Below are positions 10,980 through 57,423 of a DNA stretch of 64,000 nucleotides, piece by piece. Each line of letters starts with the position of its first letter. Within the stretch, counting starts at the first letter, position 1. This DNA comes from Verrucomicrobiia bacterium (GTDB taxonomy: Bacteria; Verrucomicrobiota; Verrucomicrobiia; Limisphaerales; UBA11358): contig DASTWS010000006.1 in the NCBI GenBank assembly GCA_035776755.1, positions 6,777 to 70,776 on the forward strand, read 5' to 3'. A model generated the notes under the pieces. That model ran no database searches. It saw only the letters and a list, made by a program, of their open reading frames with translations, and was not told the origin of the DNA. The position numbers and the translations under genes were made by a program.

Positions 10980-11033
10980 GTTTTCAATTTTTAGTTTTAA
11001 GTTCCAGCCGGTCAACTTAAACTTGAAACTGAA

Positions 11034-24691: not shown

Positions 24692-24698
24692 GATTGGG

Positions 24699-24722
24699 TT
24701 GAATCGTTGAATCGTTGAATCG
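24699..24722. repeat. tandem octamer repeat (TTGAATCG)x3 in the ATP-grasp/alpha-E spacer
   Basis: Directly read: three perfect TTGAATCG copies plus a partial one. CAATTTAAG and ATTTAAC words follow at 24761-24778. Related copies occur at 28965-28996 and 38044-38110. Confidence 0.8.
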
Positions 24723-24790
24723 TGAAATAGAACAGCCGGCCTCTATGCGAGCCAATGTAACAATTTAAGCATTTAACGATGTAACGCATT

Positions 24791-35174: not shown

Positions 35175-35186
35175 ACCAAAAATTTT

Positions 35187-38117: not shown

Positions 38118-39566
38118 ATGCCGACAGCAACAGAGACCATCGAGGGTTTAGTCCAAAACGAATATAAATACGGATTTTACACGGACGTGGAGACGGAATC
38201 CGCGCCGCCGGGATTGAACGAAGGCATCATCCGCCTGATTTCGCACAAAAAGAACGAACCGGCGTGGATGACGGAATGGCGGCTCAAGGCGTTTCGCCAT
38301 TGGCAGACGCTGGAAGAGCCGACGTGGCCGAAGGTTCATCACGAAAAAATTGATTATCAGGGCATCACTTATTACGTGGCGCCGAAGTCGCAAAAAGAAG
38401 GCCCGAAAAGTTTGGACGAAGTGGATCCGAAACTTTTGGAGACTTATGAGAAACTCGGCATTCCTTTGCGCGAACGCGAACGCCTCGCCGGTGTGGCTGT
38501 GGACGCGGTGTTTGATTCTGTCAGCGTGGGCACGACCTACAAAAAATCGCTCGCGGAAAAGGGAATCATTTTCTGTTCGATGAGCGAAGCAATCCAGGAA
38601 CATCCTGAACTGGTAAAAAAATACATCGGCGCCGTTGTGCCTTACACGGACAACTTTTTTGCCGCGCTGAATTCCGCCGTGTTCACCGACGGCTCGTTTT
38701 GTTACATCCCCAAAGGCGTGCGTTGTCCGATGGAGCTTTCGACGTATTTCCGCATCAATGCCGCGAAGTCCGGCCAATTCGAACGCACGCTCATCGTCGC
38801 CGAAGAAGGCGCTTACGTGAGTTACCTCGAAGGCTGCACCGCGCCGATGCGCGATGAAAATCAATTGCATGCGGCGGTTGTGGAACTCATCGCGCTCGAC
38901 AACGCGGAGATCAAATATTCGACGGTGCAGAATTGGTATCCCGGTGATGAACAAGGCCGTGGCGGCATTTACAATTTCGTGACCAAGCGGGGCTTGTGCA
39001 AAGGGAAGAATTCAAAAATTTCCTGGACGCAGGTCGAGACCGGATCGGCCATCACATGGAAATATCCGAGCTGTGTTTTGCTCGGCGACAATTCGAAAGG
39101 CGAATTTTATTCCGTCGCCGTCGTGAACAACATGCAGCAGGCTGACACCGGCACGAAGATGGTGCACATCGGCAAAAACACCAAGAGCACGATCGTGTCG
39201 AAAGGCATTTCCGCCGGCAAAGGACAGAACAGCTATCGCGGTCTCGTGAAAATCCAAAAATCTGCGTCGAACGCGCGGAATTTTTCGCAATGCGATTCGA
39301 TGCTCATCGGCAACAAATGCGGCGCGCACACGTTTCCTTACATCGAAGTGAAAAATACCAGTGCGAGCGTTGAGCACGAAGCGACGACTTCAAAAATCGG
39401 CGAGGACCAGATTTTTTATTGCAACCAGCGCGGGCTGGCGACGCAGGACGCCGTGAACATGATCGTGAACGGCTTTTGCAAGGAAGTCTTCAAGGAATTG
39501 CCGATGGAATTCGCCGTCGAAGCGCAAAAACTTCTGGGCGTGAGCCTGGAAGGCAGCGTCGGTTGA
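38118..39566 (+). CDS. sufB: Fe-S cluster assembly protein SufB
   Basis: 482 aa with SufB-typical sequence throughout ([47 protein letters not shown]). Confidence 0.92.
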
Positions 39567-42322: not shown

Positions 42323-44235
42323 TGGCTTTTAATTTCAGACAGTAAATCCGCGAAATGATTTTCGAGCCCGGCAGCATTTTTGATTTCATCGGAAACCTGC
42401 GGGCCGTTGTTTGTCCAGACGTTTCCGGGACCGTTCGCGTTTCGTAGAAATTTTTCAGCAGGAGACCAGTTGTCGCGCCAGGTTTCAAACGATGAGCCTT
42501 CGTCGGCGTAAAGATAAAACCAATGTTGTGGGTCGGGAACATACGGACTTGGCGAAATGTCGGAGATGGAATTTGCGGCGACAACGGTGCCGGGTTGCGA
42601 GGACAACAGGTAAATGCCGCCGAGATCGCCGAGCATTTGCCCGATGTGATGGATGTGATTGGCGAAAATGAAATTATCGCGCAGAGCGTTTGTCATTTTT
42701 GTCCAGCCCCAGCCGACGCTGACGCCGGAATAGGGCAGATCGAAGATTTCATTGTGTCCGATTTTTATATCATGGGCATAACCGACGCAAATGCCAACGC
42801 AGCCCCAATCTTCCGTGCCGCAATCATTGATCAAATTGTTGAAAATTTTTTCATTCGAGCAAATTTCGTTTTTGTTCGTCGGATTGTAAGGAAAATGAAC
42901 TTCGACATTGGTGTCGGAAAATTTTCCCAATTGAATTCCGTTGCCGCCGATGTCGCGGAAAATGCAGCCTTCAACCAAATCGTCACGCGTGCCGGTTTCA
43001 AAATCGAGGCCGGCGGATGCCGTGTGCTCAAACGTGCAATTTTCGAATGAAATGTGATTTGCGTTTTTGGCGATGACTGCGGCTGGCGGACGGCCAACCC
43101 ATGCGACGTTGTCCAATTTTGGGTGATAAATGGTGCCGCGTGGCGACAGTTTTTTTGCCGCGAGCATGAACATGCCGGCCTGCAACGGGACATGACCTGA
43201 TTGTGATGGCCGAAGCCATGTTGTGTCGGCAAAGGTAATTCCCCGGAATTTCACGTTGGAAATGGGCTTGTCCGGCGTTCCGGAAATTTTCACCAGTGTT
43301 TCCAGGGCGGGAGCAATCACCCGAGAATTGGCCGGATTTTCACCGTTGCGCGGCCAGTAATAGATTTTCCCGGCATGAATATCTTCAAACCATTCTCCCG
43401 GCGAATCAAGAAGTTGAATTGCGTTGGCCAGGAAAAATGGAGCGGCATATTTTGAATTTACCGTCACGGGCGGCCAGGGATGTTCAAATTCGATTTTGCT
43501 TTCAGGTTGTTTGAAGCTAATAAATGCATTGGTTCCTTTGATTTCGATTTTCGAGACACGCAGGTTGGCGATTTCCCAGACCTGATCAATGACCATTTCC
43601 GATTCCCGCGGTTTCCGGATTCCTGCCAAGGTCGTCGTCGGAATTAGAGCCGTTTGATTGGTTTTATTCCAACCAGCGAGGCGATCCATATTTCCGGCGT
43701 TCGGTTCACGCGCGCGGATCGCTTTATTGCCGTTGATCCAAAGCTGCCGGAATTCCAGAGTTTTTCCATTTACTTTCGGCGCGTCGGTCATCCACACATT
43801 GTTCCGGGCAATTTCCGGTAGTCCGGGAATGTTTTTGCTGCATTTTCGCCAACCGCGGATTTCCAAGCCGCCGGTGAAAACGGGACGTTCGCCTGGAGCG
43901 GCTTGAATAATCACCGGATTCGTCCCGGCGCCAAAACTGTTCGCGCCAAAAGTGAGCGGTGCTTTGAGAAAATAATTGCCTCCCCGCAAAATAATATAGA
44001 CAGGTTCTGAACCGCGAATCTTCTTTCCGAGAACATCGTTGGAAATTTTTGTTTCGAGCTCAGAAAAAGAGCCGAAGGGATGACTGCGCGAACCATCCGC
44101 CGTATGGGTCATATTGGTCGAAACCCAAAATTCAGCACCATCGGCGGAAAAGCCAAAGGTTGCGGAGCAAAAAGCGCAAATTATCAACAAATTCGGTCGA
44201 ACAAGCGCTTGAAAAAGGCTGGGGCGAACTTTCAT
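42319..44235 (-). CDS. secreted right-handed parallel beta-helix protein (unassigned CAZyme candidate)
   Basis: Signal peptide. Repeated NxxFxxC / IGGNGI-type beta-helix turns. The stop overlaps the GH78 start (ATGA). Confidence 0.6.
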   Translation of the reverse strand: MKVRPSLFQALVRPNLLIICAFCSATFGFSADGAEFWVSTNMTHTADGSRSHPFGSFSELETKISNDVLGKKIRGSEPVYIILRGGNYFLKAPLTFGANSFGAGTNPVIIQAAPGERPVFTGGLEIRGWRKCSKNIPGLPEIARNNVWMTDAPKVNGKTLEFRQLWINGNKAIRAREPNAGNMDRLAGWNKTNQTALIPTTTLAGIRKPRESEMVIDQVWEIANLRVSKIEIKGTNAFISFKQPESKIEFEHPWPPVTVNSKYAAPFFLANAIQLLDSPGEWFEDIHAGKIYYWPRNGENPANSRVIAPALETLVKISGTPDKPISNVKFRGITFADTTWLRPSQSGHVPLQAGMFMLAAKKLSPRGTIYHPKLDNVAWVGRPPAAVIAKNANHISFENCTFEHTASAGLDFETGTRDDLVEGCIFRDIGGNGIQLGKFSDTNVEVHFPYNPTNKNEICSNEKIFNNLINDCGTEDWGCVGICVGYAHDIKIGHNEIFDLPYSGVSVGWGWTKMTNALRDNFIFANHIHHIGQMLGDLGGIYLLSSQPGTVVAANSISDISPSPYVPDPQHWFYLYADEGSSFETWRDNWSPAEKFLRNANGPGNVWTNNGPQVSDEIKNAAGLENHFADLLSEIKSQ

Positions 44236-44268
44236 GGCGAATTATTGTATTATTTGCAGAGAAAACCG

Positions 44269-44309
44269 GATTGTAAATTTTACTTTCAACATTGGCACTT
44301 TTTACAATC
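44269..44309. promoter_or_regulatory. inverted repeat GATTGTAAA-N23-TTTACAATC in an AT-rich divergent control region
   Basis: Read directly. It lies in the 321-bp AT-rich gap between the divergently oriented beta-helix/GH78 operon and cassette 1. Confidence 0.3.
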
Positions 44310-44556
44310 AATTTATTTCCTATGACACCACAATTTTTTAAGCCCACGACAGAATTATACTGCTAATTGGTTGATAATACGACACTTAAAAATTTTTAGT
44401 CAACCTGGCGTAATCCTTAGTGCATCCATATAAATGATTAGTCAATGGCATTGAAAATCGAAGTTGATTAGCAATTTTGGCAAATGATTTACACTTTTTC
44501 GCATTACACAACTATTAAAGATGTGCTAGATATAACAAAGAAAATCCACATAAATC

Positions 44557-45531
44557 ATGTCAGAATTGAAAAGGCCTGCGTTTTCGTTTCGTCATCACCA
44601 AAAAGGTGTAAGCAGAATTGTTTTGTTTTCTAAATCCGTTCAAAGCGGTTTTACCCTGATAGAGCTTTTGGTTGTGATAGCGATCATAGCGATTCTGGCG
44701 GCGATGTTGTTGCCGGCGCTGGCGCGTGCAAAAGAAAGGGCGAAAGCAATTCAATGTTTAAGCAACACCAAGCAATTGACGCTTGGTTGGATTGAGGCTG
44801 AAGGGGACAATGACGATTCGTTTATTGCGCAAAATAAGATTATCGATGCCGGGACTGGAGCGGGGCAAAATTACATGGATTGGGGAACTGGTGGAAGTGA
44901 AATTGATACTGTTGGGCTTGTGGGGCCAAATGCCGGACTAGCGCCCTATTGTGGAAGCCCAAAAGTTTGGAAATGTCCATCCGATACTTATTTAAGCGCG
45001 GCGCAGAATGGTGCTGGTTACAACGAGCGTTCTCGCAGCTATGCAATCAATGGCGTGTTGGGCAATGGCAGTTCCGGTCCGAATGTTTCTTCGGACTACC
45101 AAAACAGGAAATATTTCGGACATGCGACCGCGACAGGGATTGGACTTAATCGAACGGCTCAGAAGACTTCCGATTTATCCATCAGTGGCACGGCCAACTG
45201 CATTGTGTTTTTAGATGAGCAGGCAGACAGCATCGACGATGCGCTTTTCATGTTTGATATCACAGACACCGGTGGGAGTGGCCAATACTGGCGCAACCTT
45301 CCGGCGTCCTATCACAATGGTTCGGGAGAATTTTCGTTTGCCGACGGTCATTCGGAGTTGCACAAATGGCTGGAGAAGGGAGGGCTGACTCCTCCGGAAA
45401 AGGCCAGGAAAACGATTTATCCGGTCACAACAACGCACACCTCCACCAGCAGTCCTTATTGGGGTAGTTCCTTTACATTTTCATCCAGCCAGGATTGGGC
45501 GTGGTTTGCAGACCACATGCCTTATAGATAG
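44557..45531 (+). CDS. prepilin-type N-terminal cleavage/methylation domain protein with H-X9-DG motif (pseudopilin-like), copy 1
   Basis: QSG|[29 protein letters not shown] is the class III signal. [14 protein letters not shown] fits H-X9-DG. Confidence 0.85.
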
Positions 45532-45584
45532 ATCTCAATTAGAAATAGAATTTCACTAATCACATCGCAATCCAAACCCATACT

Positions 45585-48500
45585 ATGAACAAAAAACAAA
45601 CCACTGCATTGGCAGTTCGCGTTTTTCAACGCGGCGGCATTCAGAAAAAAATTGAAGCTACATTTGGTGTCAAGGTATTGGCGCTGTTTGTGGTCATTGT
45701 TGTCAGCCTCTTTTGCCCCGCGGGCAACGCTGTCGCGCAAACGTTAAGATTTAAATCAGGGCAGGATGTTGTCACCGTGCCAGCCGGGTTCAATGGCAGC
45801 GCGGTTGTGACGAACCAGGTGACGATTTCCGGCCTGGGGGGAAATTATATGACTTTAAGTTTATCAGGATTGCCGACCGGTATTACGGGCGCGATAACTG
45901 ATTTAGCCGGTAATCCAGTAGCGTCTACGAACACCAGCACCGGTTTGAAGATAAATTTGACCGGCGCGGGAGTTGCCGACGGAGCTTATACCTTTAGCAT
46001 CAATGCCAGCGGTTTGGACACAAATAGTTCGCCCGTTGCCAACAGTTTAAATTACACGCTTGAAGCTGGATATATCTGGAATGGTTCAACCAACGTGGCA
46101 TTGGATGGTCCGGGAAGCTGGACTGATTCCGCAAAATGGCTTGGCGGCGGCGTTCCGGATGCAAGCAGCGATGTTGTCATCGCTGACTCCGGCAGCCAGA
46201 CCAATTTTCTGGTAGGTGGCGCTCTAAAGCCAAACATCGTTGTCAATAGTGATGCGACAGTTGGTTCCATCCGCTTTTCCGCAACCAATTCCGGTCCGGT
46301 TGGAAACGGCGTTTGGCAAACTCTTGGAATCGGCGGCGGCAAAACGCTTTCGGTGGTGGGCGCCAACGGCTTCAGTGTTTTGAGAGATTATATTGCGGAT
46401 TCAGGATATGGAAATATGCTGAACGCCGTTAACGTGGTTATTGCCGGAACCAACGGCGCCATGCTGGTGGTCAGCAATGAAACAGCCAATTTCTCGGTTT
46501 TGACCGACACCAGTGGAAACAATCGCCTAAGCGTCCTCGATATGTCGCCTCTGGATAATTTAGTGTTGGATGTGAGCCGGATGGCGTTGGGCGACTATAC
46601 GGCATATCCGAACTATATGAATTTCAGCATTGCCAACTCCTATAATGGAGTCCCACGCCGTTTTCTTCCAAACGTTAACCTTGCCAAAACTAATATTATC
46701 AAGGCAGTTTTTGCAGATCCTTATAATTATACCAATGGCATTAACCGACAGTTTTCCGTGAGCTTTTTAAATTCTGAACAAAGTGGCTCTTCGACGCAGC
46801 CCAATTTGTTGCTCGGCATTGACAATGAATTTTATGTGGACAGCGTGAACTTTGTTGGCGCCAATCAACAAGGCAACGTGAGATTTAACGCCGGACTCCG
46901 GGTCGCTACGAACATCGTCGTGGGAGTTTCGACCAATTACTTCACCAATTCAATGAGCGCCTATTTCCGCGGCACCAATGGCGGGACGATGTCCTTGTTC
47001 AGTATTTCAGACTGCTCCGGCACAAACGGCGCCGGCAGCAATGCAAAAGCGACTGTTGATTTCAGTTTGGGTTCGTTGAATATCATGGCCGACCGATTTT
47101 ACATTGGCCGCGACAGACCGAAAATCAACGGCGGACAAAATCCGAATTATCAAGGCTTCTTCATAATGGGTAATGGATCGGTCGAGGTCAATAATGCCAT
47201 CCTTGGATTCCAGGAATACAGCGATCAAACCAATCAGGCTACATTTAATGGTTATTGCGAAGGCTCTGTGACGATTCTAAGTAATGGACTCTTTCAGGTC
47301 AATGATGACTTGATTTTAGGATATTGCACCCAAACCAACACATTGGGGTTGGGCAGCGCAGGTAACACCACCTACGGAAAGCTTTTTGTTTACAATGGCG
47401 GAACTCTGACGGCAAATAAAATTGAAGTCGGTATCCCGGCCTATACTTCGGCAAATAACTTGATCGTCGTCAGTAACAATTCCACGCTGGTTGTTTCCAA
47501 CACGATCGCCAGCACAAACAAGATGTTGGATTCATTGAGCTTCTATAATTCAACTCTTTCGTTGAGCGTGGACGGCACAGCAACCACGCCCTATGTTTTT
47601 GCAACGAATTTAGTTACGGTCGGAAACAACACGATCAATATTATGTCGGTTGCAAATCCCGGCTCCGTGGCCGTTCCCTTGATCCGTTACGTGACGCCTG
47701 GCGCAACATTCTCGACCTTGAATATGCCTGGCGGATTGGTCGGCGTGTTGATTGATGACGGCGTCGGAACCTTTTACTTGAACATCCTGACCAATGCGCC
47801 CAAGACTTTGACCTGGCGTGGTTACTCCGATGCAAATTGGGATTTAACCACGAAAAACTGGCTGGATTCCGCCACCGGTTTGCATACCAACTTCGCCAAC
47901 GGCGATAATGTGACGTTCGACGACGCGGCAAGCATTCCGACGACGGTTAACGCGGCGGTTTCTACACTCATTGTCGGCTCAATGACGATTACCAACACGG
48001 CGAACGCCTATGTATTTAATGGTTCGGGCAATATCGTCGGCAGCGCGGTCAAGAAAGGTTCCAACTCCCTTGAAATTGATGATCCCTCATCATTGAACAT
48101 CGAAATTGATAACGGCTCTTTGACCGGCAGCGGAACACTCGGCCAGGTTACTGTCCTTTCCGGCGCGCAAATGAATTATACCGGAAACCTAAAAGGCGGC
48201 ATCCTTTGTGGCGGTATTGGCACGGTATCGGGCAATGTTGTTGGTTCGCTCACGCTTCAAGCCGGAGGCGTGTTCACCAATAAAGGAACCATTAACAATT
48301 CGTTTACGACCGCCAACGGTTCGTTGTTGGTTAATGAATTGAATGCGGAATTCAGAACTTTCGCTTCTTCCACAATCGTATCCAATTCCATCGTCATCAA
48401 TCGTGGTTACATCGGCGGCACGAGCCAAAGCACAGCCGGCCAAAGTATCACCGTCAACAATGGCGGCATGTTTGAAGACACCGGTGAAGGATGGCTTACG

Positions 48501-49220
48501 ATGAATGGCACATTAACAATTGCGTCCGGGGCAACCTTCATTCCGGGCGGCGATGGTGTTGGCACAACCTATGTTTATAAAGGAACTGCCGCGGCTTCCA
48601 CTTTCCCGGCGCGCGTGATATTTGCACAAGGTTCAACCAATATCTTTAAGGTAAACAAAGATTTGGGAACTTATACCCGGATCGGTGCTGACTTTATTGA
48701 TTACGGAGGGAGTGCAAGTGTTAAGAGTTACAACGGCGGCACGCTTCAATTCGTAAACGTTGGCTCACTGCCTTATGCGGCTGGCGATTCCTTCAATATC
48801 GCTTTTTATTCGGAAAGCGGTGGAGCGTTCAGCACATATAGCGGCACGGCAACTAATACTTATCCCATTCTTGATCCGCCGGCGCCGGCTTCGGGGTTGG
48901 CGTGGAACATCAATAACCTCACGTTGGGCGGAACCGTAAAAATCGTTGGCGTATCGACCAATACATTTAACCTGGGATTTGTTCCCACCTTTACGACGCT
49001 GGTTACGACAAACAGCACGAACAACGTTATCATTGGTAATTTGTCATGGCCGGGCACGAACACGGGCTGGCGGTTGCAACAATTGCAAACAGCTTTGACC
49101 AACGGCTTGTCGGCGACAAACTGGCAGGACGTTTTTGGTTCTGCGTGGACCAACAACGTCGTCTTTACAAATAATATTGCTACAAACACCGCGACGTTTT
49201 ATCGCATGGTTTATCCGTAA
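45585..49220 (+). CDS. giant (1211 aa) secreted beta-strand-repeat protein (autotransporter-associated beta-strand repeat-like), copy 1
   Basis: Long N-terminal signal (MNKKQTTAL...LALFVVIVVSLFCPAGNAVAQ). T/N/G/S-rich beta-repeat sequence. WRG..ANWD...NW...F.NGDNVTFDD...Y.F.GSG.I.G...KKGSN.L block typical of the repeat family. Ends in FYRMVYP. Confidence 0.75.
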   Translation: MNKKQTTALAVRVFQRGGIQKKIEATFGVKVLALFVVIVVSLFCPAGNAVAQTLRFKSGQDVVTVPAGFNGSAVVTNQVTISGLGGNYMTLSLSGLPTGITGAITDLAGNPVASTNTSTGLKINLTGAGVADGAYTFSINASGLDTNSSPVANSLNYTLEAGYIWNGSTNVALDGPGSWTDSAKWLGGGVPDASSDVVIADSGSQTNFLVGGALKPNIVVNSDATVGSIRFSATNSGPVGNGVWQTLGIGGGKTLSVVGANGFSVLRDYIADSGYGNMLNAVNVVIAGTNGAMLVVSNETANFSVLTDTSGNNRLSVLDMSPLDNLVLDVSRMALGDYTAYPNYMNFSIANSYNGVPRRFLPNVNLAKTNIIKAVFADPYNYTNGINRQFSVSFLNSEQSGSSTQPNLLLGIDNEFYVDSVNFVGANQQGNVRFNAGLRVATNIVVGVSTNYFTNSMSAYFRGTNGGTMSLFSISDCSGTNGAGSNAKATVDFSLGSLNIMADRFYIGRDRPKINGGQNPNYQGFFIMGNGSVEVNNAILGFQEYSDQTNQATFNGYCEGSVTILSNGLFQVNDDLILGYCTQTNTLGLGSAGNTTYGKLFVYNGGTLTANKIEVGIPAYTSANNLIVVSNNSTLVVSNTIASTNKMLDSLSFYNSTLSLSVDGTATTPYVFATNLVTVGNNTINIMSVANPGSVAVPLIRYVTPGATFSTLNMPGGLVGVLIDDGVGTFYLNILTNAPKTLTWRGYSDANWDLTTKNWLDSATGLHTNFANGDNVTFDDAASIPTTVNAAVSTLIVGSMTITNTANAYVFNGSGNIVGSAVKKGSNSLEIDDPSSLNIEIDNGSLTGSGTLGQVTVLSGAQMNYTGNLKGGILCGGIGTVSGNVVGSLTLQAGGVFTNKGTINNSFTTANGSLLVNELNAEFRTFASSTIVSNSIVINRGYIGGTSQSTAGQSITVNNGGMFEDTGEGWLTMNGTLTIASGATFIPGGDGVGTTYVYKGTAAASTFPARVIFAQGSTNIFKVNKDLGTYTRIGADFIDYGGSASVKSYNGGTLQFVNVGSLPYAAGDSFNIAFYSESGGAFSTYSGTATNTYPILDPPAPASGLAWNINNLTLGGTVKIVGVSTNTFNLGFVPTFTTLVTTNSTNNVIIGNLSWPGTNTGWRLQQLQTALTNGLSATNWQDVFGSAWTNNVVFTNNIATNTATFYRMVYP

Positions 49221-49237
49221 AACGATACGAACAATCG

Positions 49238-49276
49238 AGCCGGAGTTGAGTTGAATCTCATCTCCGGCTTTTTTAT
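49238..49276 (+). terminator. intrinsic terminator of cassette 1
   Basis: AGCCGGAG..GAG-loop-CTC..CTCCGGCT followed by TTTTTTATTT. Confidence 0.75.
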
Positions 49277-49539
49277 TTATCTGAATTCGATGAAAGTTTG
49301 GCAGTTTTCTTAAATAAACATCCCCAATTTTGTCACTTTTGTTAAGTGGGTCACCACAACTGTGGATGTTATTGCAAATTGTAACCTTTAGTTGCGATGT
49401 TCAGAGTTATTTCCTGTGTTAGGTTTTAATCAAGCTTCATCTCATCTTTTCCGGAGATGTTTTGTCGTGTTGCAGTGAGAGTTGTCTGGCGGACCGACGG
49501 TGATCTTACGGATAACGCTCGACGTTTGATTAAAACAAT

Positions 49540-50490
49540 ATGATTTATAAGAAAAACGCAGTCGTCTTTAGCAATTCAGTTTCTCGAAGCGCGCAAAGCG
49601 GTTTTACCCTGATTGAGCTTTTGGTTGTAATAGCAATTATTGCGATATTGGCCGCCATGTTGTTGCCGGCGCTGGCTCGAGCCAAGGAAAGGGCAAAGGC
49701 GATACAATGTTTAAGCAATACCAAGCAATTGACTTTGGGCTGGCTGGAGGCTGAAGGGGATAATGATGATTCGTTTATTGCGCAGAATAAGATCATCGAT
49801 TCCGGCACGGGGGTCGGACAAAATTTTATGGATTGGGGAACGACTGGCAATGAGATTGATACTGTAGGGCTTGCGGGACCAAAAGCGGGATTGGCTCCCT
49901 ATTGTGGAAACCCGAAAGTTTGGAAGTGCCCTTCGGACACATATTTGAGCTCAGCGCAGGACAGTGCCGGTTACAATGAACGTTCTCGCAGTTACGCAAT
50001 CAACGGCGTGTTGGGTAATGGCAGCTCCGGGCCTGAAATAAAAACAGATTATCAAAACAGAAAGTATTTTGGGCATTCCGCCACGACAGGGATTGGGCTC
50101 AACCGGACGGCTCAAAAGACTTCTGATTTATCCATCAGTGGTTCTGCCAACTGCATTGTGTTTTTGGACGAGCAGGCAGACAGCATCGACGATGCGCTTT
50201 TCATGTTTGATATCACCGACACAGGTGGAAGTGGCGAATACTGGCGTAATCTTCCGGCTTCCTATCACAATGGTTCGGGAGAATTTTCGTTTGCCGATGG
50301 TCATTCGGAGTTGCACAAATGGTTGGAAAAAGGTGGAACGACTCCGCCGGAAAAGGCGCGGAGAACGGTTTATCAGGTGACGACGCAACATTCATCGCTT
50401 AACACGCCCTATTGGGGATCGTCTTTTACGTTTTCCTCCAGCAAGGACTGGCAATGGTTCGCCGACCATATGCCTTACAGAGGTCAATAA
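49540..50490 (+). CDS. prepilin-type N-terminal cleavage/methylation domain protein with H-X9-DG motif (pseudopilin-like), copy 2
   Basis: The class III signal and H-X9-DG motif are the same as in copy 1. My hand alignment finds about 32 substitutions and no indels over about 293 mature residues. Confidence 0.85.
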
Positions 50491-50531
50491 AATTTCGCAA
50501 CATCAAATCCTAATCCACAAAAAACCAAAAT

Positions 50532-53500
50532 ATGAATAAAAAACAAATAACAGCGTTAATGTGTCGCGTTCTCGGTCGCGACAGTATTCGAGAAAGGAAT
50601 GTCACGGAATTGGGTTTGCGGGCATGGGCTTTTGTGGCAGCGGTTGTAATCGGGTTGATTTCGTCGGCCAGCGATGGCAATGCGCAATCGGTTGGCACCG
50701 TGGCGCAACCAGTGCGGGTAACGGTTCCAATCAATTCGACTTTATCGAATGGTGTTGCTTTTACGACCACGTTAAGCGGCACGGTAAACCCGGAAACTCT
50801 AAGCCTGTCCTCGCTTCCGGCGGGTGTCACCTATAGCTTCAGCACAAACAACTTCACCAACACGGTTTCCGGCACTTTGTCGCTTTTTACGACGGACGTT
50901 CCTGAAGGCATTTATACCTACAGCCTCGATGAGAACGGCGATGCGACGGGAAATCTCCTGTTGCAAATTCAATCGGCGCATCTTTGGACCGGTGCGGTAA
51001 GCAGTGACTTTGCAGATGCTGGCAATTGGGCGGGCGGATTGCCGGGACCGGGTGATGATATTGTTTTCACCGATACAAATGGGTTGGGGCATGGAGCAAC
51101 TACAACAAACGTGTGGGTCACTGCTAACACAGAAATCGGTTCATTGCGCCAAGCCATAACTTCTGGTGGAACGCGTCGCGATAACATCCAAATTGATGAC
51201 GGAGTGACGCTTTCAATCACAGGCACAAATGGCGTTTCATTGGGATTGCGCGATAATTCTGATACTTACCAAAGTTGGGAATTTGCCTTTATGGGCAATG
51301 GAGGAACTTTAGTGGTAAGTAATCAGGATGCGGATTTCGATACGTTTGCAATTGAAAACCAAACGCCATATTACTACATGGACAATTTGGGCACATTCGT
51401 AGCTAATCTCCATCAAATCCATTTGAGCGACTATACAGTTTATCCCAATTGGCAAAGTCTCCAAGATAATGGATATAAAAACGCCGCTTTGCCGCGACGT
51501 CTGCCAGTGCCTGAATTTCATTGGGCGCGAACGAATCTTGTTTATTTGAATTTCGCCGGCGATCCAAATGACTGGAATGATCCTGCCATTCATCAATATT
51601 CGATGATGGTTGGCAACGATAATTACATTAGCGGTAGCACACAGCGTCATCCGTTTTACTTTGGCATCTATAATCTTTTCGAAATGAACAGCGTCTGTTT
51701 TGCCGGCTCGGGCGTTTCAATGGATAGTTCTGGAGCGGCTAAATTTAACACGGCTTTTACCGCTTCGAATTGCATCGCAATCTTCCGTGGAACCAACGGC
51801 ATGAGTGATCGCATGGCAATGTTCGCCATTGCGGACAACGCCGGTGTTGGTGCGTCGGGCAGCTCATCAAAGGCCGTCATTGATTTTTCGGCGGGAACGA
51901 TTGACGCGCTGGTGGACAAACTTTATATCGGTCGCGACCGAACCAATTCTTCCGGTTCAATCGGTCAAGGTGTTTTGACCATCGGCCAAGGCACTTTCGA
52001 CGTGAACACAGCCATTTTGGGCTATCAGTCACTGAGCAATAATTTGGGAACAGGAATTGATTATTGCCAGGCCACGGTGAACGTTACTAGCAATGGTTTG
52101 TTCAACGTAAATGACGAATTGGCGCTGGGCTATACATCGGCCGAATTAACGAATACTGCCAGCGCGCAAAGCGGCTTCGGCAAAGTAAATATCAGCTCGG
52201 GTGGAACGGTTGCTGCCAACACGATCACCGTCGGTGGCATCACCAAGATTTCTGCAGATAACGAAATCAACCTCAACGGGGGCAACCTGGTTGTTTCAAA
52301 CACAATTGCTTCGGCTGAGAAGCCTTTGACGACATTGAGTTTCGCCAACGATTCGACAATGACGCTTTTCGTTGATGGCACGGCGACGGAGCCATATGTC
52401 TATACGACGAACCTGACGACTTCTGGAAATAATATCATTAACATCGGAGCCGTGGCGAATCCCGCCTCGGTCGTCATTCCGCTCATCAGCTATGTGACTC
52501 CCGGAGCGAGTTTTGCCGGAGTAACCATGCCCAGTGGTTTGACAGGTAATCTGGTTGATGACGGTGTGGGAACGATTTATCTGCAAATATCCACCAATGC
52601 GCCGAAGAACCTTGCCTGGCGCGGCTACGTTGACGGCAACTGGGATTTAACGACCAAAAACTGGCTGGATCTGGACACCGGCATTCAGACCAATTTTGCG
52701 AATGGCGACAACGCCACCTTTGATGACACGGCTGCAATCCCGACGACAATCACAATTCCTTCGGCCATTGTTGCCACATCCATTACGGTTACCAATACGG
52801 CAAACGCATATGTGTTTAGCGGTTCTGGCAATTTAATTGGTCACATTGTTAAAGACGGTGACAATTCTCTTGAAATTGATGCTCCCACTTCTGTGAGCAT
52901 CGAAATTGACAAGGGCTCTTTAATTGGCTCCGGCGTTGGCAGTGTCGGCCAGGTTACGGTTCTTTCGGGGGCCGAAATGAATTATCAGGGTAAAATCAAA
53001 GGCGCCATACTTTGCGGCGGTATCGGCACGGTTTCAGGAGATGTCGTTGGTGCAGTAACACTCCAATCGGGAAGCGTCTTCACCAATAACGGCACGATTC
53101 ACAATTCATTCACCACGGCAGACGGCTCGTTGCTGGTTAACGAGTTGAACGCCCAGTTTGTGAATTTTGGAACCTGCACCGTTGCTTCCAATTCGATTGT
53201 CATCAATCGCGGTTACATCGGCGGTCAAAGCCAAAGCACGGCCGGCCAGAATGTTACTGTCAATAACGGCGGCACTTTTGAAGATACCGGCGAAGGATGG
53301 CTCATTCTGAATGGCACTTTGACCATTGGTTCCGGCGGAACATTTATCCCCGGCGGTGACGGCATCGGCACCACATATGTTTATAAAGGCAGCGTCTCGT
53401 CCGGCTTCCCGGCGCGTATCCTGTTGTCGCAGGGGTCGACCAATATCTTTAAGGTCAACAAAGACTTGGGACTGAACACACAAATCCAAGGCGACTATGT

Positions 53501-54023
53501 GGACTACGGCGGCAGTTCCAGTGTTCCGAACAATAACGGATGCACGCTGCAATTTGTAAATGTCGGCTCCACGCCATTCGCGGCGGGAGATACATTTACG
53601 ATTGCAAGATATTCTGAAAGCGGCGGTTCCTTCTCGACGTTTACCGGAACGGCCACCAATACTTATCCGGTCATGGATCCGCCGGCTCCGGCTGACGGAT
53701 TGGGATGGAACATCAATAACCTCACCATGAGCGGTGTGGTCAATATCGTCGGTGTCTCAACGAATACATTTAATGTTGGATTTACTCCGACTTTTACGAC
53801 GTTGATCACTCCGACCAGCACCAATGCCGCGATTATCGGCAATCTATCATGGCCGGGCACGAACACCGGCTGGCGCTTGCAACAATTGCAGACAGCGTTG
53901 ACCAATGGCTTGTCGGCGACCAATTGGACTGATGTATTCGGTTCGCAGTGGACCAACAGCTACACGTTTACCAATAACGTCACTACAAACACAGCAACGT
54001 TCTATCGCATGGTTTATCCCTAA
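50532..54023 (+). CDS. giant (1163 aa) secreted beta-strand-repeat protein, copy 2
   Basis: The architecture matches 45585-49220. The N-terminus is MNKKQITAL..., and the C-terminal roughly 475 aa are collinear with copy 1, ending in the identical TNTATFYRMVYP. Confidence 0.75.
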   Translation: MNKKQITALMCRVLGRDSIRERNVTELGLRAWAFVAAVVIGLISSASDGNAQSVGTVAQPVRVTVPINSTLSNGVAFTTTLSGTVNPETLSLSSLPAGVTYSFSTNNFTNTVSGTLSLFTTDVPEGIYTYSLDENGDATGNLLLQIQSAHLWTGAVSSDFADAGNWAGGLPGPGDDIVFTDTNGLGHGATTTNVWVTANTEIGSLRQAITSGGTRRDNIQIDDGVTLSITGTNGVSLGLRDNSDTYQSWEFAFMGNGGTLVVSNQDADFDTFAIENQTPYYYMDNLGTFVANLHQIHLSDYTVYPNWQSLQDNGYKNAALPRRLPVPEFHWARTNLVYLNFAGDPNDWNDPAIHQYSMMVGNDNYISGSTQRHPFYFGIYNLFEMNSVCFAGSGVSMDSSGAAKFNTAFTASNCIAIFRGTNGMSDRMAMFAIADNAGVGASGSSSKAVIDFSAGTIDALVDKLYIGRDRTNSSGSIGQGVLTIGQGTFDVNTAILGYQSLSNNLGTGIDYCQATVNVTSNGLFNVNDELALGYTSAELTNTASAQSGFGKVNISSGGTVAANTITVGGITKISADNEINLNGGNLVVSNTIASAEKPLTTLSFANDSTMTLFVDGTATEPYVYTTNLTTSGNNIINIGAVANPASVVIPLISYVTPGASFAGVTMPSGLTGNLVDDGVGTIYLQISTNAPKNLAWRGYVDGNWDLTTKNWLDLDTGIQTNFANGDNATFDDTAAIPTTITIPSAIVATSITVTNTANAYVFSGSGNLIGHIVKDGDNSLEIDAPTSVSIEIDKGSLIGSGVGSVGQVTVLSGAEMNYQGKIKGAILCGGIGTVSGDVVGAVTLQSGSVFTNNGTIHNSFTTADGSLLVNELNAQFVNFGTCTVASNSIVINRGYIGGQSQSTAGQNVTVNNGGTFEDTGEGWLILNGTLTIGSGGTFIPGGDGIGTTYVYKGSVSSGFPARILLSQGSTNIFKVNKDLGLNTQIQGDYVDYGGSSSVPNNNGCTLQFVNVGSTPFAAGDTFTIARYSESGGSFSTFTGTATNTYPVMDPPAPADGLGWNINNLTMSGVVNIVGVSTNTFNVGFTPTFTTLITPTSTNAAIIGNLSWPGTNTGWRLQQLQTALTNGLSATNWTDVFGSQWTNSYTFTNNVTTNTATFYRMVYP

Positions 54024-54039
54024 ACGATAAAACAATCAG

Positions 54040-54076
54040 AGCCGGAGCTGAGTTTAAACCTCACTCCGGCTTTTTA
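54040..54076 (+). terminator. intrinsic terminator of cassette 2
   Basis: AGCCGGAGCTGAG-loop-CTCACTCCGGCT followed by TTTTTAATT. It is homologous to 49238-49276. Confidence 0.75.
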
Positions 54077-54135
54077 ATTACCTTTGAATAAAAACACGCT
54101 AACCGATATTTCGCCTAACACGTCTGATAGTCCCA

Positions 54136-55539
54136 ATGAAACGATTTTTGCCACAGTTGATTGCTATTTCAGTATTTTCTTTATCACTTCCAGTTTTTGT
54201 ATCCGCCAAAGAACAATTGGCTTTCCCGACTGCTGAAGGTTATGGCCGCCTCGCAGCCGGCGGGCGCGGCGGACGCGTCATCCATGTCACGAATTTGAAC
54301 GATTCCGGTCCCGGCAGTTTGCGGGCCGCCGTTGAAGCGACTGGGCCGCGCACAGTTGTATTCGACGTTTCCGGACTTATTACCTTGGAATCGCGACTGA
54401 TTATCCGCCATCAAAATTCCAACCTCACCATTGCCGGCCAAACCGCGCCGGGCAAGGGCATTTGCATCCGCAAATATAATTTCGGAATGCTTGGCGCCAC
54501 CAATGTCATCATCCGTTATATCCGCGTCCGGCCCGGCAACATTTCCGGAACCACTCTGGACGGAATGGGAATGGCCTCGGCGAACGATTGCATCATTGAC
54601 CATTGTTCTATCAGTTGGACGATTGACGAAGCATTCAGTTCGCGCGGCGCAAAAAACATCACCCTCCAGCGCACGCTGATTTCCGAAGCGCTCAATGACG
54701 CCGGCCATAAAAAATATCCGCCTGGCACACAACACGGATATGCCGCGAGCATCGGCGGCGACATCGGCAGCTTCCATCACAATCTTCTCGCCGATAACGA
54801 AGGACGCAATTGGAGTCTTGCCGGCGGTTTGAATAAAAATCCACCGACTTATGCCGGACGATTGGATTTGCGGAACAACGTCGTTTTCAACTGGAAATCC
54901 CGCGCGACCGACGGCGGCGCGCATGAAGTCGATTTTGTCGGTAACTATTACAAGCCCGGTCCGGCGACAAAATTCTTTTACGCTTTGAATGCTCAATACG
55001 GCGGATTTCCCGGCACGCAGCAATACTATTTTGCCGGCAACGTGATGCCCGGTCATTTCGGTTTGACGAACGAAGAAATGGGTCGCGAAGCAACGACCGA
55101 ACGCGGCGGGCGATTGCCGAAGGATTACAGCCCATGGGTTGATAAAGAATTTTTTCCGTCGTATGTGAAAACGCAGACGGCAGCAGAAGCCTATACAAAC
55201 GTCCTCGCAAATGTCGGCTGCAATTTTCCCGTGCTCGACGATCACGATCAACGAATCATCAACGAAGTCCGCACCGGCAAAACGACATTCAAAGGCAGTC
55301 GCACCGGATTGCCTGGACTGCCGGATTCACAGGACGATGTCGGCGGCTGGGAAAATTATCCGGAAATCCATCGCGCTGCCGATTGGGACACGGATGGTGA
55401 TGGAATGCCCGACACTTGGGAAAAAACGCACGGTTTGAATCCTCAGGATCCGTCCGACGGAAACAAAGACCTGAACGGCGACGGCTATACCAATTTGGAA
55501 AAATATCTCAATTCATTGGCAGGAGAATATTCAATTTAA
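54136..55539 (+). CDS. pectate lyase (PL1-like), paralog A, with C-terminal dockerin/TSP3-like Ca-loop tail
   Basis: Signal peptide. AFPTAEGYGRLAAGGRGGRVIHVTNLNDSGPGSLR. DCIIDHCSISW (the vWiDH-type motif). Tail DTDGDGMPDTWE...DLNGDGYTNLEKYLN. Confidence 0.8.
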   Translation: MKRFLPQLIAISVFSLSLPVFVSAKEQLAFPTAEGYGRLAAGGRGGRVIHVTNLNDSGPGSLRAAVEATGPRTVVFDVSGLITLESRLIIRHQNSNLTIAGQTAPGKGICIRKYNFGMLGATNVIIRYIRVRPGNISGTTLDGMGMASANDCIIDHCSISWTIDEAFSSRGAKNITLQRTLISEALNDAGHKKYPPGTQHGYAASIGGDIGSFHHNLLADNEGRNWSLAGGLNKNPPTYAGRLDLRNNVVFNWKSRATDGGAHEVDFVGNYYKPGPATKFFYALNAQYGGFPGTQQYYFAGNVMPGHFGLTNEEMGREATTERGGRLPKDYSPWVDKEFFPSYVKTQTAAEAYTNVLANVGCNFPVLDDHDQRIINEVRTGKTTFKGSRTGLPGLPDSQDDVGGWENYPEIHRAADWDTDGDGMPDTWEKTHGLNPQDPSDGNKDLNGDGYTNLEKYLNSLAGEYSI

Positions 55540-55738: not shown

Positions 55739-57421
55739 ATGAAAAGTAAATTATTGATCGTAACGGCAATTTCTATTGTTTCCCAGGTCATTCTCGCGCG
55801 CGAAAGCTGGCCGGTGGCCGAAGGCGCGGATAGACAACGGCAGGAAGAATTCAAACAACATGCCGCCGAAGTGATTTCAAATGACATGCCGCAAATTCTC
55901 GAATGGGAGAAAAAAGGCAAACCTTATGTTCCGTGGGCCGCCAAGCCCGGCGATTTACCGGAGGCAAAGGTGCCCGCGTTTCCCGGCGCGGAAGGTGGCG
56001 GAAAATATTCTTTCGGCGGACGCGGCGGAAAAGTTTACGTCGTGACCAATTTAAACGACAGCGGCCCGGGCAGTTTCCGCGAAGCCTGTGAAGCTGCCGG
56101 CCCGCGCATCGTTGTTTTCAATGTCGCCGGCATTATTCATCTGAAAAAGCCGATCAATATCGAAGCGCCTTACATCACGATTGACGGCCACACGGCTCCT
56201 GGCGACGGCGTTTGTATTGCCGGTGAAACCACGCTGGTTGACACGCACGATGTTGTCATTCGCTACATGCGTTTCCGTCGCGGCAACACGAATGTCTTTG
56301 ACCGCGACGATGCCCTCGGTGGAAATCCCATTGGCAATATCATTGTGGATCATTGCTCGTGCAGTTGGGGATTGGACGAAAATCTTTCGATGTATCGCCA
56401 CATTTATGAACGCCGGACAAATGGCTACGGCGAAAAATTGCCAACCGTGAACATCACGTTGCAATGGAACATTTCCAGCGAAGCATTGAACATTTACAAT
56501 CACGCGTTCGGCGGAACATGGGGCGGACGTAACAGCACTTTTCATCACAACCTTTTCGCATGCAACACCGGTCGCAATCCGAGCATTGGCATGACTTACG
56601 GTTTCAATTTCGTCAACAACGTGCTGTTCAATTGGCGGCATCGAACCGTGGACGGCGGTGACCGGAACAGCCTATACAACATCATCAACAACTATTACAA
56701 GCCCGGTCCGGCAGTGAATTCCGGAACGATTCAATACCGCATCCTGCAGCCATCCGCGTCGAAAACAAAGGAAGACCCGACGCCGCGTTTGGGAAAAGCT
56801 TATGTCGCCGGAAATATCATCGAAGGAAATGAAAAAGTTTCCAACGATAATTGGGATGGCGGCGTGCAATTTGACGTCGGCGGCTCCAAAGAAGATCCAA
56901 CGATTGCAAAGACTGATGCGGCCCAAAAACTGGCCGGCGAAGTGCGGTCAAATAATCCGTTTCCGATGGCTCCGGTCATTGTGAGTTCGGCCAAAGATGC
57001 CTTCCGGGAAGTTTTGAAAAATGCCGGCGCAACGCTCCCGCGTCGCGATGCGGTGGATCAACGCGTGATTGAGGAAGTTCAGACCGGAAACGTCTGGAAC
57101 CAGGGAAAAGAATTCACGCCCACGCCGATGAAAGGTTTGGCCAAAAATAATTGGGGCGTGGCTGGCAATGGAATCATCACCGATCCGTCGCAAGTCGGCG
57201 GCTATCCCGAATACAAAGGCGAACCGGCTAAAGATTTAGGCGCCGATGGCATTCCCACGTCCTGGAAAAAGAAATATCATCTCGACGTGAGCGACCCGAA
57301 TCTCGCGCAAAAGGATTTGCAGGGCGACGGTTACACGGTGATGGATAAATATCTCGATGGCCTGGATCCGACAAAGAAAATTGATTGGAACGACCCGCGG
57401 AGCAACGTCAACACGTTGTAG
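55739..57421 (+). CDS. pectate lyase (PL1-like), paralog B
   Basis: AFPGAEGGGKYSFGGRGGKVYVVTNLNDSGPGSFREA. IIVDHCSCSW. Tail GADGIPTSWKKKYHL...DLQGDGYTVMDKYLDG. Confidence 0.8.
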   Translation: MKSKLLIVTAISIVSQVILARESWPVAEGADRQRQEEFKQHAAEVISNDMPQILEWEKKGKPYVPWAAKPGDLPEAKVPAFPGAEGGGKYSFGGRGGKVYVVTNLNDSGPGSFREACEAAGPRIVVFNVAGIIHLKKPINIEAPYITIDGHTAPGDGVCIAGETTLVDTHDVVIRYMRFRRGNTNVFDRDDALGGNPIGNIIVDHCSCSWGLDENLSMYRHIYERRTNGYGEKLPTVNITLQWNISSEALNIYNHAFGGTWGGRNSTFHHNLFACNTGRNPSIGMTYGFNFVNNVLFNWRHRTVDGGDRNSLYNIINNYYKPGPAVNSGTIQYRILQPSASKTKEDPTPRLGKAYVAGNIIEGNEKVSNDNWDGGVQFDVGGSKEDPTIAKTDAAQKLAGEVRSNNPFPMAPVIVSSAKDAFREVLKNAGATLPRRDAVDQRVIEEVQTGNVWNQGKEFTPTPMKGLAKNNWGVAGNGIITDPSQVGGYPEYKGEPAKDLGADGIPTSWKKKYHLDVSDPNLAQKDLQGDGYTVMDKYLDGLDPTKKIDWNDPRSNVNTL

Positions 57422-57423
57422 AA

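Follow-up and report, generated by a model that had tools for sequence, protein, structure and literature searches.

The DNA analysed here is a 64,000-nucleotide stretch of contig DASTWS010000006.1 from a Verrucomicrobiia bacterium (GenBank assembly GCA_035776755.1), which in its full length we call the window. Within a pectin-degradation locus it carries two consecutive gene units, each made up of a gene for a pseudopilin-like protein (A) followed by a gene for a giant secreted protein (B), and each closed by a hairpin. A sequence-only reading of the window had proposed this arrangement, and all four open reading frames (ORFs) are indeed present, in tandem on the + strand:

44557–45531, + strand: A1, pseudopilin-like protein of 324 aa with a prepilin-type (class III) signal, cleavage between G31 and F32 (codon at 44647).
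45313–45348, + strand: H-X9-DG motif of A1, in the head domain.
45585–49220, + strand: B1, giant of 1211 aa with an extended Sec signal peptide, cleavage between A49-V50-A51 and Q52; its predicted domains, taken from an AlphaFold2 (AF2) model of its paralogue B2, are an immunoglobulin-like (Ig-like) domain, a long right-handed β-helix and a C-terminal β-sandwich of ~90 aa (48933–49217) ending FYRMVYP.
49237–49280, + strand: terminator 1, at the end of unit 1 (intrinsic terminator or 3′ stem-loop).
49281–49539, no strand: spacer between the units, presumed site of the unit 2 promoter.
49540–50490, + strand: A2, second pseudopilin-like protein, 316 aa.
50532–54023, + strand: B2, second giant, 1163 aa; C-terminal sandwich at 53736–54020.
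54038–54080, + strand: terminator 2, at the end of unit 2 and just 5′ of the lyase genes (intrinsic terminator or 3′ stem-loop).

The translations of A1, B1, A2 and B2 are those of NCBI proteins HEU6447257-60, in which the A proteins are annotated as prepilin-type and the B proteins as hypothetical. As had been noted, A is separated from B by short gaps (53 nt in unit 1, 41 nt in unit 2) and both giants start MNKKQ.TAL; both also end ATFYRMVYP. A1 and A2 are the only pilin-type genes in the window.

The pairing extends well beyond this genome. A profile built from eight giant sequences, scanned against one genome per species (GTDB), gave 21 loci, almost all of them in metagenome-assembled genomes (MAGs) of Limisphaerales or 'subdivision 3'. 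In 16 of the 17 genome loci with upstream DNA, an ORF of 269–316 aa with a shared N-terminus lies directly 5′ of the giant gene on the same strand, and 12 of these 16 ORFs contain the literal H-X9-DG motif. Six further contigs, reached through close homologues of A, have A directly 5′ of B in every case. In total, 22 of the 23 orthologous loci for which upstream DNA is available (from ~25 genomes and metagenome contigs of Limisphaerales/subdivision 3) have a pseudopilin gene immediately 5′ of the giant, and the flanking DNA of the 21 genome loci contains just one other pilin-like ORF. This adjacency across genomes bears out the suspected partnership, and we conclude that A–B is a conserved module whose pairing is above chance. 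The unit itself varies in composition: B may be of ~1150–1250 aa with no Pfam match or of ~1820 aa with PATR repeats (PF12951), and the genes may be arranged as A-B-B′ or as two successive A-B pairs. The ~1820-aa giants are found in the loci that we designate L022–L024 and L105, where the first lyase is of ~760 aa with an extra N-terminal part.

The module also occupies a fixed place, between the following genes and features:

39581–42322, − strand: GH78 α-L-rhamnosidase (Pfam Bac_rhamnosid6H, E 2.7e-91, and four more rhamnosidase domains), with a signal peptide.
42319–44235, − strand: GH141-type β-helix glycosidase (Pfam GH141_M, E 4.9e-56, and Beta_helix), with a signal peptide; divergent from A1.
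44236–44556, no strand: AT-rich divergent intergenic region of 321 nt, presumed to hold promoters/operators for GH141 and A1.
54136–55539, + strand: PLa, pectate-lyase-like secreted enzyme (PDB 9buj, E 3.6e-49; VexL 6fi2, E 1.9e-12), with a weak TSP3 repeat.
55739–57421, + strand: PLb, pectate-lyase-like secreted enzyme (PDB 9buj, E 2.5e-48); syntenic, 54–71% identity.
57385–59103, + strand: PLc, pectate-lyase-like secreted enzyme (PDB 9buj, E 2.3e-37); syntenic in several loci.
59064–60392, + strand: major facilitator superfamily (MFS) transporter (Pfam); orthologues 72–79% identical.
60340–61266, + strand: dihydrodipicolinate synthase (DHDPS)-family enzyme (Pfam); orthologues 72–79% identical.
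61263–62780, + strand: GH63/MGH1-like hydrolase (Pfam); orthologues 55–79% identical.

The earlier placing of the pair in a pectin locus is thus upheld, with GH78 and GH141 divergent upstream, three 9buj-related proteins downstream, and conserved synteny. Comparison of the window proteins with the first 24 loci (tblastn) shows one syntenic locus, and the gene tables of L105–L107 give the same order: GH78 and GH141 on the − strand, then A, B, PLa, PLb, (PLc), MFS, DHDPS and GH63. Orthologues of GH78 are 53–69% identical and syntenic in most loci, GH141 is syntenic in L005, L008, L022, L024 and L105–107, and PLa is syntenic across loci at 50–85% identity. The MFS, DHDPS-family and GH63-like genes form the conserved downstream end of the locus and are syntenic in at least 12 loci. 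All six locus enzymes have signal peptides, and PLa, PLb and PLc are paralogous to each other. Related loci also carry GH2, GH95, GH127, an apiosidase-like protein, BNR_2, DUF3826 and an AraC regulator, a gene set aimed at pectin side chains (rhamnogalacturonan). Every B homologue for which the context was recovered (~25 genomes and contigs) sits in this same type of locus and at the same position, and A–B stays put while adjacent genes are gained and lost.

Some local features of the locus may be recorded here. The GC content falls to 0.456 in the interval 44001–46000. The ORFs for PLc, the MFS transporter, the DHDPS-like enzyme and the GH63-like hydrolase (57385–62780) overlap by 4–53 nt at their called starts, some of which are TTG, reflecting either tight packing with translational coupling or over-extended starts. 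At the other end, SufB adjoins GH78 (38118–39566 region); in several relatives (L022, L105, L106) the GH78 arm runs on into DUF3826 (not in L105), GH2 and an AraC regulator. Because SufB lies directly beside GH78, no locus regulator is visible in the window. Three contigs with full verrucomicrobial synteny are labelled as Bifidobacteriaceae (L009), Pseudomonadales (L011) and Candidatus Acidoferrum (L013) MAGs, and are probably mis-binned.

The hairpins that close the two units are, as the sequence-only reading had it, homologous and each followed by a T-run. They are 74% identical over 58 nt, and their folding energies lie below those of shuffled sequences (−22.4 kcal/mol, z −5.25, after B1; −21.1 kcal/mol, z −6.05, after B2). 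In 15 of 19 other loci (among L001–L024 and L105–L107), as in both window units, a hairpin lies 20–60 nt past the stop codon of the last giant; L106, which has two giants, enters this count for the second only, the hairpin following only that giant. The consensus, GCCGGGG-UUGAGU-nnnn-ACUUGG-CCCCGGC-UUUUU, folds in RNAalifold into a stem of 14 bp with a loop of 4 nt, and compensatory double changes occur at five pairs; the GCCGGAG/CUCCGGC of the window is one such change, from G-C to A-U. Three G.U pairs can exist only in the transcript of the + strand. The hairpin is better conserved than the adjacent coding sequence, which is only 30–45% identical, and for this reason we consider it to be under selection, probably for a fixed 3′ end, or for termination of part of the transcripts, between A–B and the lyase genes. 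Such a separation resembles the situation in fimbrial operons, where the major-subunit genes are differentially expressed. The element is absent from Rfam, in which the search gave a sub-threshold match to Thr_leader over terminator 1 only. A scan for promoter and terminator consensus sequences gave sigma-70-like counts at the level of chance, with a loop limit that missed both real hairpins. No shared operator motif emerged: the sequence upstream of A1 does not align with that upstream of A2, and a direct-repeat search of 44200–54200 revealed no intergenic repeat apart from the terminator region.

What kind of protein is A? The N-termini of A1 and A2 contain the prepilin signal (...SG/FTLIELL, the slash marking the cleavage site), and both proteins score above the curated cut-offs for PF07963 (36 bits for A1 and 37.1 for A2, against 21.2) and TIGR02532 (33 bits, against 16.3), as had been predicted. 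The first 25 residues are essentially invariant and the same as those of polymerising pseudopilins, including E5; the leader is long (21–31 aa) and the head comprises ~240 aa. In the AF2 model of A1 (mean predicted local distance difference test, pLDDT, 73) a helix at residues 34–84 (pLDDT 85–95) precedes an α/β head, and a profile of the A family matches PilA, PilE and GspG among PDB sequences along the α1 helix only. We conclude that A is a member of the pilin/pseudopilin superfamily. Its family is large, with at least 8000 homologues, all at E≤1e-3.

The H-X9-DG motif is also literally present in both A proteins (in A1 as H253...D263-G264). The match to the corresponding model, TIGR04294, which the earlier reading had proposed as a check, is nevertheless sub-threshold for A1 (14 bits, against 19), and so is that to PF07596/DUF1559 (15 bits, against 23.3). 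Since A1 falls under both curated cut-offs, A is a divergent relative of the H-X9-DG/DUF1559 family and not a member at the level of the models; PF07596 is touched at E≤1 by 32 of 48 close homologues of A, the best at 8e-8. Across 48 homologues the invariant residues of A1 are C67, C140, R160-S161, D220-E221, D224, D228, W245, P249, H253 and D263-G264-H265-S266. Of these, C67 and C140 probably form a disulfide, and the pattern of invariant residues in the head suggests a metal or ligand site.

A pseudopilin of comparable setting has been observed in culture. In Verruconatronum alginivorum (Opitutales), the PulG-like pseudopilin pgaptmp_000050, one of 67 paralogues in the genome, is encoded within an alginate operon and accounts for 0.513% of the proteome in cells on alginate, against 0 on mannose or sucrose (log2FC 19), being the most abundant of the cluster proteins 000047–000051 in Table S3 (PMC13274419). 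Other PILIN genes of that organism are flanked by signal-peptide 'hypotheticals' of 860–1258 aa and by sialidases, and its authors suggest that alginate lyases are exported by a type II secretion system (T2SS); they describe no partner and no terminator (PMC13274419). By analogy, this substrate-induced pseudopilin may serve as a precedent for A.

The residues conserved in the head of A could be read differently. A might remain unpolymerised, as an inner-membrane-tethered periplasmic protein that is metal-dependent (through the D-E/D/H...DGH cluster) or glycan-binding and acts as a chaperone, sensor or oligosaccharide-binding partner, with B independent of it. The invariance of D220, E221, D224, D228, H253, D263, G264 and H265 would suit such a role, as would a head fold unlike known pilin heads, the name SBP_bac_10 that Pfam gives to the related family, a family expansion that is unusually large for structural pilins, and the lack of assembly machinery near A. 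The near-invariance of its 25 N-terminal residues, shared down to E5 with pseudopilins that polymerise, is hard to reconcile with it, however, and no periplasmic-binding-protein fold was found for the A1 model with Foldseek. The high induced abundance of the Verruconatronum protein likewise suits a structural subunit (PMC13274419). We regard the unpolymerised role as unlikely.

The giants match no model in Pfam (E≤0.01) or NCBIfam (E≤10). This includes TIGR02601/PF12951, and the β-strand repeat that had been suspected in them is thus not found in either. A profile search with B against PDB sequences also matched nothing. The AF2 model of B2 (pLDDT 82.9) is all-β throughout after the signal-peptide helix, and consists of an Ig-like domain (53–152), a long β-helix (~175–1060) and a small sandwich (1069–1161) of 5–6 strands and ~90 aa, the last strand of which is the FYRMVYP sequence. 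With Foldseek, the alignments of B2 that are long are weak and fall on autotransporter passengers (Hap, IgA1 protease, EspC, Ag43b, Hbp and EspP; E 1e-3 to 4e-2, low TM scores), and Ig/PapD-like domains are matched locally. The extended signal peptide comprises 51 residues (cleavage AVA/Q), and A51-Q52 is conserved among the giants. N, T, G and S make up 43% of the residues, and charged residues are few. Among 1.84e9 proteins the family has 649 representatives at E≤1e-3, of which 164 reach E≤1e-30.

No known domain in these proteins explains how they might leave the cell or stay attached to it. Pfam, NCBIfam and the B2 model reveal no barrel, lipobox or known sorting tag; for the T9SS CTD, PEP-CTERM, LPXTG and CHU_C tags there is no NCBIfam match even at E≤10; and neither a Pfam match to the PilY1/PilC β-propeller (PF05567) nor a propeller in the B2 model was seen. 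A known secretion or anchoring domain that would account for the giant on its own, which the earlier reading had named as grounds for refutation, was thus not found in Pfam or NCBIfam, C-terminal domains included.

A right-handed β-helix is the standard pectinase fold, and the locus is dense in β-helix enzymes (GH141 and the three lyase-like proteins). B could for this reason be an unrecognised pectinase or lyase, A being merely co-regulated with it. We consider this improbable. Homology of B with the lyases of the locus or GH141 was examined and rejected, there being no similarity (phmmer E>10), and no PDB chain resembles it in sequence either. The long Foldseek matches are to passengers of autotransporter adhesins and proteases, not to polysaccharide lyases (PL) or GH28, and the longer orthologues bear PATR repeats. 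The columns that are invariant across 23–30 giants are mostly G, N, W and P, with no candidate cluster of catalytic acids or bases standing out, and B evolves far faster than the enzymes.

The two units arose by tandem duplication, as had been supposed, with a period of ~4.8–4.95 kb. A1 and A2 are 88% identical (70–96% along their length), and B1 and B2 are 52% identical. The duplication is not recent, because synonymous sites are well diverged. The giants form a mosaic. Their N-parts (alignment columns 1–650, approximately residues 53–650) are 26–50% identical along their length and their C-parts 61–86%. The N-part of B1 is nearer to orthologues from other genomes (69%, 58% and 56%) than to that of B2 (~35%), whereas the C-parts of B1 and B2 are each other's closest relatives (74%, against ~45% to most orthologues; the partial homologue P0002 is at 63–74%). 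The possibility that the C-part is inherently the more constrained was rejected, given that across orthologues the two parts are similarly conserved (0.37 against 0.41), and the high identity of the C-parts is therefore an effect within this genome. The pattern points to A and the C-part of B having been kept matched, by gene conversion or by replacement of the N-part, with the N-part left free to differ. It would fit an N-part that varies and faces a ligand, together with a C-part whose partner is A or some shared host machinery.

Between genomes, A and B are the fastest-evolving genes of the locus. Their identity to the window copies is 34–49% for A and 27–43% for B, compared with mostly 50–85% for the flanking enzymes and transporter, so that they diverge about twice as fast. 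Such rates are to be expected of exposed surface parts. They would also suit a reading in which A–B is a general adhesion or biofilm module with no part in glycan use, present in the pectin locus by descent only. The adhesin-like fold of B, the variable copy number and the isolation of the unit by a terminator would all be in keeping with this. Against it stands the restriction of B homologues of known context to one locus type and one position despite the turnover of their neighbours, as does the induction of a related pseudopilin by its substrate in culture (PMC13274419), and we think it very doubtful.

A broader view of the partnership comes from distant paralogues of A. Scanning metagenome contigs with the A profile gave 80 loci of such paralogues, at 28–41% identity, and their neighbours are varied. 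A domain of ~70 aa like that at the C-terminus of B recurs there on LamG-like, GH18-like and giant secreted proteins, with the pattern ..LSWP..GW.LQ.S..L...W..V.......FYRl..P-COOH and the ending FYRxxx(P/Q). It was found in loci L030, L033, L037, L044, L069, L070, L071, L078, L096 and L021; examples are the genes at 7045–9903 and 10891–14151 of L037 and at 7631–9964 and 10961–12364 of L070. Of the 13 matches to a hidden Markov model (HMM) of the domain (E≤0.01), 11 directly adjoin a pseudopilin gene on the same strand, compared with 64 in a background of 431 ORFs of 250 aa or more (Fisher p 2e-8); part of the training set of this HMM came from these same loci, its sequences having been picked by motif and not by position. 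A plain C-terminal regular expression, put to the same question of adjacency, gives p 7e-8. Pfam returned no relevant match at E≤10 for ten representative C-terminal domains, and a homologue search with an 80-aa profile of the domain recovered four tiny fragments only.

These results change one element of the earlier reading, which had taken the giant to be the only constant partner of the pseudopilins. The A family (at least 8000 homologues at E≤1e-3) far exceeds the B family, and the distant paralogues adjoin other secreted proteins; the giant is thus not the only constant partner. Because the C-terminal domain recurs on varied proteins beside the distant paralogues, it is this domain, and not the β-helix, that is the recurrent partner. 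The C-terminal sandwich ending FYRxxx(P/Q) may be an undescribed sorting or docking domain. One could go further and suppose that it is a new sorting or docking domain of the PVC (Planctomycetota–Verrucomicrobiota–Chlamydiota) bacteria, coupling diverse secreted proteins (giants, LamG-like, GH18-like) to cognate H-X9-DG pseudopilins, the hundreds of 'orphans' in each genome being substrate-specific adaptors, encoded in polysaccharide utilisation loci (PULs), of one shared type IV filament machine. We offer this as a speculation that is more probably wrong than right. Were it correct, pilus-based display or secretion for glycan capture would have an organising role in Verrucomicrobiota and Planctomycetota like that of the T9SS CTD and SusCD in Bacteroidota, and might underlie the polysaccharide-binding fibres seen on Planctomycetes.

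A different type of recurrent partner is seen with DUF1559-type pseudopilins of ~390 aa (L101, 9917–11092 and 1603–2784; L102, 8147–9319). Two of the three are followed by a short ORF, of 139 or 171 aa, whose N-terminus resembles that of a lipoprotein (...SGCG, ...MGCGS); behind the other stands a sulfatase-like gene. The partner ORFs are L101 11184–12602 (with 9917–11092), L101 896–1411 (with 1603–2784) and L102 9454–9873 (with 8147–9319).

The varied company of the A paralogues could also mean that A is a cargo-selecting pseudopilin for the general T2SS, which would export all the folded periplasmic products of the locus (lyases, glycosidases and B), B being merely one cargo or else an independently attached glycan-binding protein with no specific link to A. 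The signal peptides on all six locus enzymes, the weakness of A–B co-evolution and the many sorts of secreted protein beside A paralogues are in line with such a role. So are two published observations: the suggestion of T2SS export of lyases where a pseudopilin gene lies in the operon (PMC13274419), and the up-regulation of the T2SS in a fucoidan-degrading planctomycete (PMC11685898). Yet it is B that A directly precedes, not the lyases, and the conserved terminator parts A–B from them. The C-terminal domain that accompanies pseudopilin genes is missing from the lyases, and A and the C-part of B have been homogenised together in this genome. A general cargo selector seems to us rather unlikely.

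We tentatively favour another interpretation, which could well be correct: that A–B is a dedicated two-gene surface module of the verrucomicrobial pectin locus, in which a locus-specific pseudopilin filament exports or displays a glycan-binding giant. A would be cleaved at its G/F site by the prepilin peptidase of the genome and assembled into a pseudopilus or short fibre by a T2SS or type IV pilus-like machine encoded elsewhere. B would reach the periplasm by the Sec pathway through its extended signal peptide and fold there; the A-containing filament would then carry it across the outer membrane, keep it attached, or both. B is proposed to depend on the filament because it has no barrel or anchor of its own, and the pseudopilin may be its membrane anchor or export adaptor, as the earlier reading had supposed. 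The conserved C-terminal part of B, with the FYR-ended sandwich, is the expected region of contact with A. At the surface, the variable N-terminal half of B would face outward and bind pectic glycans, holding the substrate for the co-encoded secreted lyases and glycosidases, the products entering through the MFS transporter. The hairpin after B may allow A–B expression to differ from, and probably exceed, that of the enzymes, so tuning the stoichiometry, and A would presumably be induced by the substrate in this organism too.

Several observations weigh against this interpretation. No gene for T2SS or type IV pilus machinery (assembly ATPase, platform, secretin or prepilin peptidase) was found among the large ORFs scanned in the 64-kb window, as had been reported before; the scan covered ~40 of the 56 window ORFs of at least 200 aa, and most of the others overlap scanned ORFs in other frames. 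The distant giant of L019 (2366 aa), the sole exception to the pairing, has no upstream pseudopilin. In L106 (10001–18098) two giants (1163 and 1167 aa) stand behind one pseudopilin, and the stoichiometry of A to B is therefore not fixed. The last 100 residues of the A1 model, which include H-X9-DG, are of low confidence, and because Foldseek found no structural relative for this model (best E 1.8), no fold can be assigned to the head. A comparison of A and B trees, with GH63, GH78 and DHDPS as controls, gave weak and inconsistent correlations (rho 0.15–0.3; partial −0.07 to 0.31). Of the 11 domain-bearing genes that adjoin a distant pseudopilin gene, only three lie downstream of it, as B does, and eight lie upstream. 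Finally, the assignment of the variable N-terminal half of B to an outward-facing, pectin-binding role is conjectural.

The other large ORFs scanned in the window are of housekeeping kinds, including MreBC/PBP2/RodA, RNase G, Ku/LigD, SufB, Asd and a hybrid kinase. Two regions were considered as further pseudopilin–giant pairs and rejected. The ORF at 7428–10979 (+ strand) encodes a 1183-aa hybrid sensor kinase that contains two receiver, four PAS and one GAF domain. That at 20235–23657, taken with 23654–24691, encodes an unrelated protein of 1140 aa, which has no Pfam match, beside an Alpha-E protein; both belong to a cluster on the − strand (19301–26266) with a transglutaminase-like protein and a circularly permuted ATP-grasp protein (24791–26266). 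The pair of LigD (phosphoesterase and ligase) and Ku genes at 13145–15648 (− strand) represents a bacterial non-homologous end-joining system. At 34260–35903 (+ strand), a 304-aa protein with no Pfam match is followed by a MotA/TolQ/ExbB-type proton channel, which lies ~9 kb from the pectin locus and may be part of a Ton/Tol-like energising system.

PVC bacteria are major degraders of polysaccharides, and their prepilin-type H-X9-DG/DUF1559 genes number in the tens to hundreds. To our knowledge they have no SusC/D systems, and we know of no study that has established the function of these genes. Here, one such pseudopilin gene proves to be the fixed, separately terminated partner of a giant β-helix protein in a conserved pectin locus, and the pair gives a testable role for the expanded 'orphan' pseudopilins of soil and freshwater Verrucomicrobia. 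The questions are now concrete: whether A polymerises, whether export or holding of the giant depends on A, and whether the giant binds pectin. If the proposed mechanism is true, it would define how these phyla organise the capture of glycans at their surface, and would provide a new protein-sorting signal for annotation and engineering.

How does the module compare with systems already described? In the literature that we searched, the DUF1559/H-X9-DG family is hardly mentioned, no conserved partners or PUL context are described for it, and no description of pseudopilin–giant pairs was found. The parts are of known kinds; what we have not found described are a conserved pseudopilin–giant unit that keeps to one place in a pectin locus and ends in a conserved terminator, and the link between the C-terminal domain and the pseudopilins. 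With the major pseudopilins of the T2SS and type IV pilins (GspG/PulG, PilA), A shares G-1, F+1, E+5 and a hydrophobic α1 of ~50 residues followed by a globular head. It differs in the head, which is twice as large and has no relative in fold or sequence among solved pilins, in the length of its leader, and in the location of its gene in a locus of carbohydrate-active enzymes, outside any gsp or pil operon. With the H-X9-DG/DUF1559 family (TIGR04294; PF07596, SBP_bac_10), which ranges over Planctomycetota, Verrucomicrobiota and Lentisphaerota, it shares the N-terminus and the H-X9-DG motif ~60 aa before the C-terminus, whereas both A1 and A2 fall under both cut-offs. The gene for Verruconatronum pgaptmp_000050, like that for A, is an orphan pseudopilin gene in a polysaccharide-degradation operon, beside signal-peptide proteins and lyases; the order, substrate and neighbours are different, comprising a 298-aa protein and PL29 and no giant.

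Giant B, for its part, shares with autotransporter passengers and PATR proteins (PF12951/TIGR02601; Hap, EspC, Ag43, Hbp) a long right-handed β-helix behind an extended signal peptide. In place of the C-terminal 12-stranded β-barrel translocator, however, it has the small sandwich ending FYRxxxP, and although its ~1800-aa orthologues carry PATR repeats, B1 and B2 match no PATR model. SusC/SusD and the surface glycan-binding proteins of Bacteroidota PULs are likewise non-catalytic and fast-evolving, and their genes are conserved within glycan-degradation loci. A and B lack the TonB-dependent barrel and plug, the SusD fold and the lipoprotein signal, and import here is by an MFS transporter. The SusC/D-like role suggested for the pair by the sequence-only reading finds no support, and at most a role of the surface glycan-binding type is possible.

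Fibres and very large secreted proteins have been implicated in holding polysaccharide elsewhere. Pili-like fibres of unknown composition on Planctomycetes bind dextran (PMC5394234), and adhesion proteins of the type IV pilin-like and fibro-slime kinds occur in Fibrobacter and Ruminococcus, those of Fibrobacteres being implicated in attachment to cellulose (PMC4704652). The likeness to A–B is one of description and implies no sequence relationship, and a pilin–giant gene pair inside a degradation locus is not described in those systems.

Lastly, the PilVWX/FimU–PilY1 set and the Verru_Chthon cassette (TIGR02596-02600) also couple pilin-type genes to one for a large non-pilin protein (>1000 aa), the cassette comprising a giant and three pilin-type proteins. 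A–B belongs to neither. Only far below their cut-offs are models of the cassette touched by A1, whose residues 32–55 reach 20 bits against the 70 required for TIGR02596 and 13.7 against 256.5 for TIGR02599, and the giants match neither TIGR02600 nor PilY1/Neisseria_PilC. There is one pilin gene per unit here, compared with three to five there. In both of these sets the large non-pilin partner presumably rides on the filament, much as we propose for B on a filament of A.

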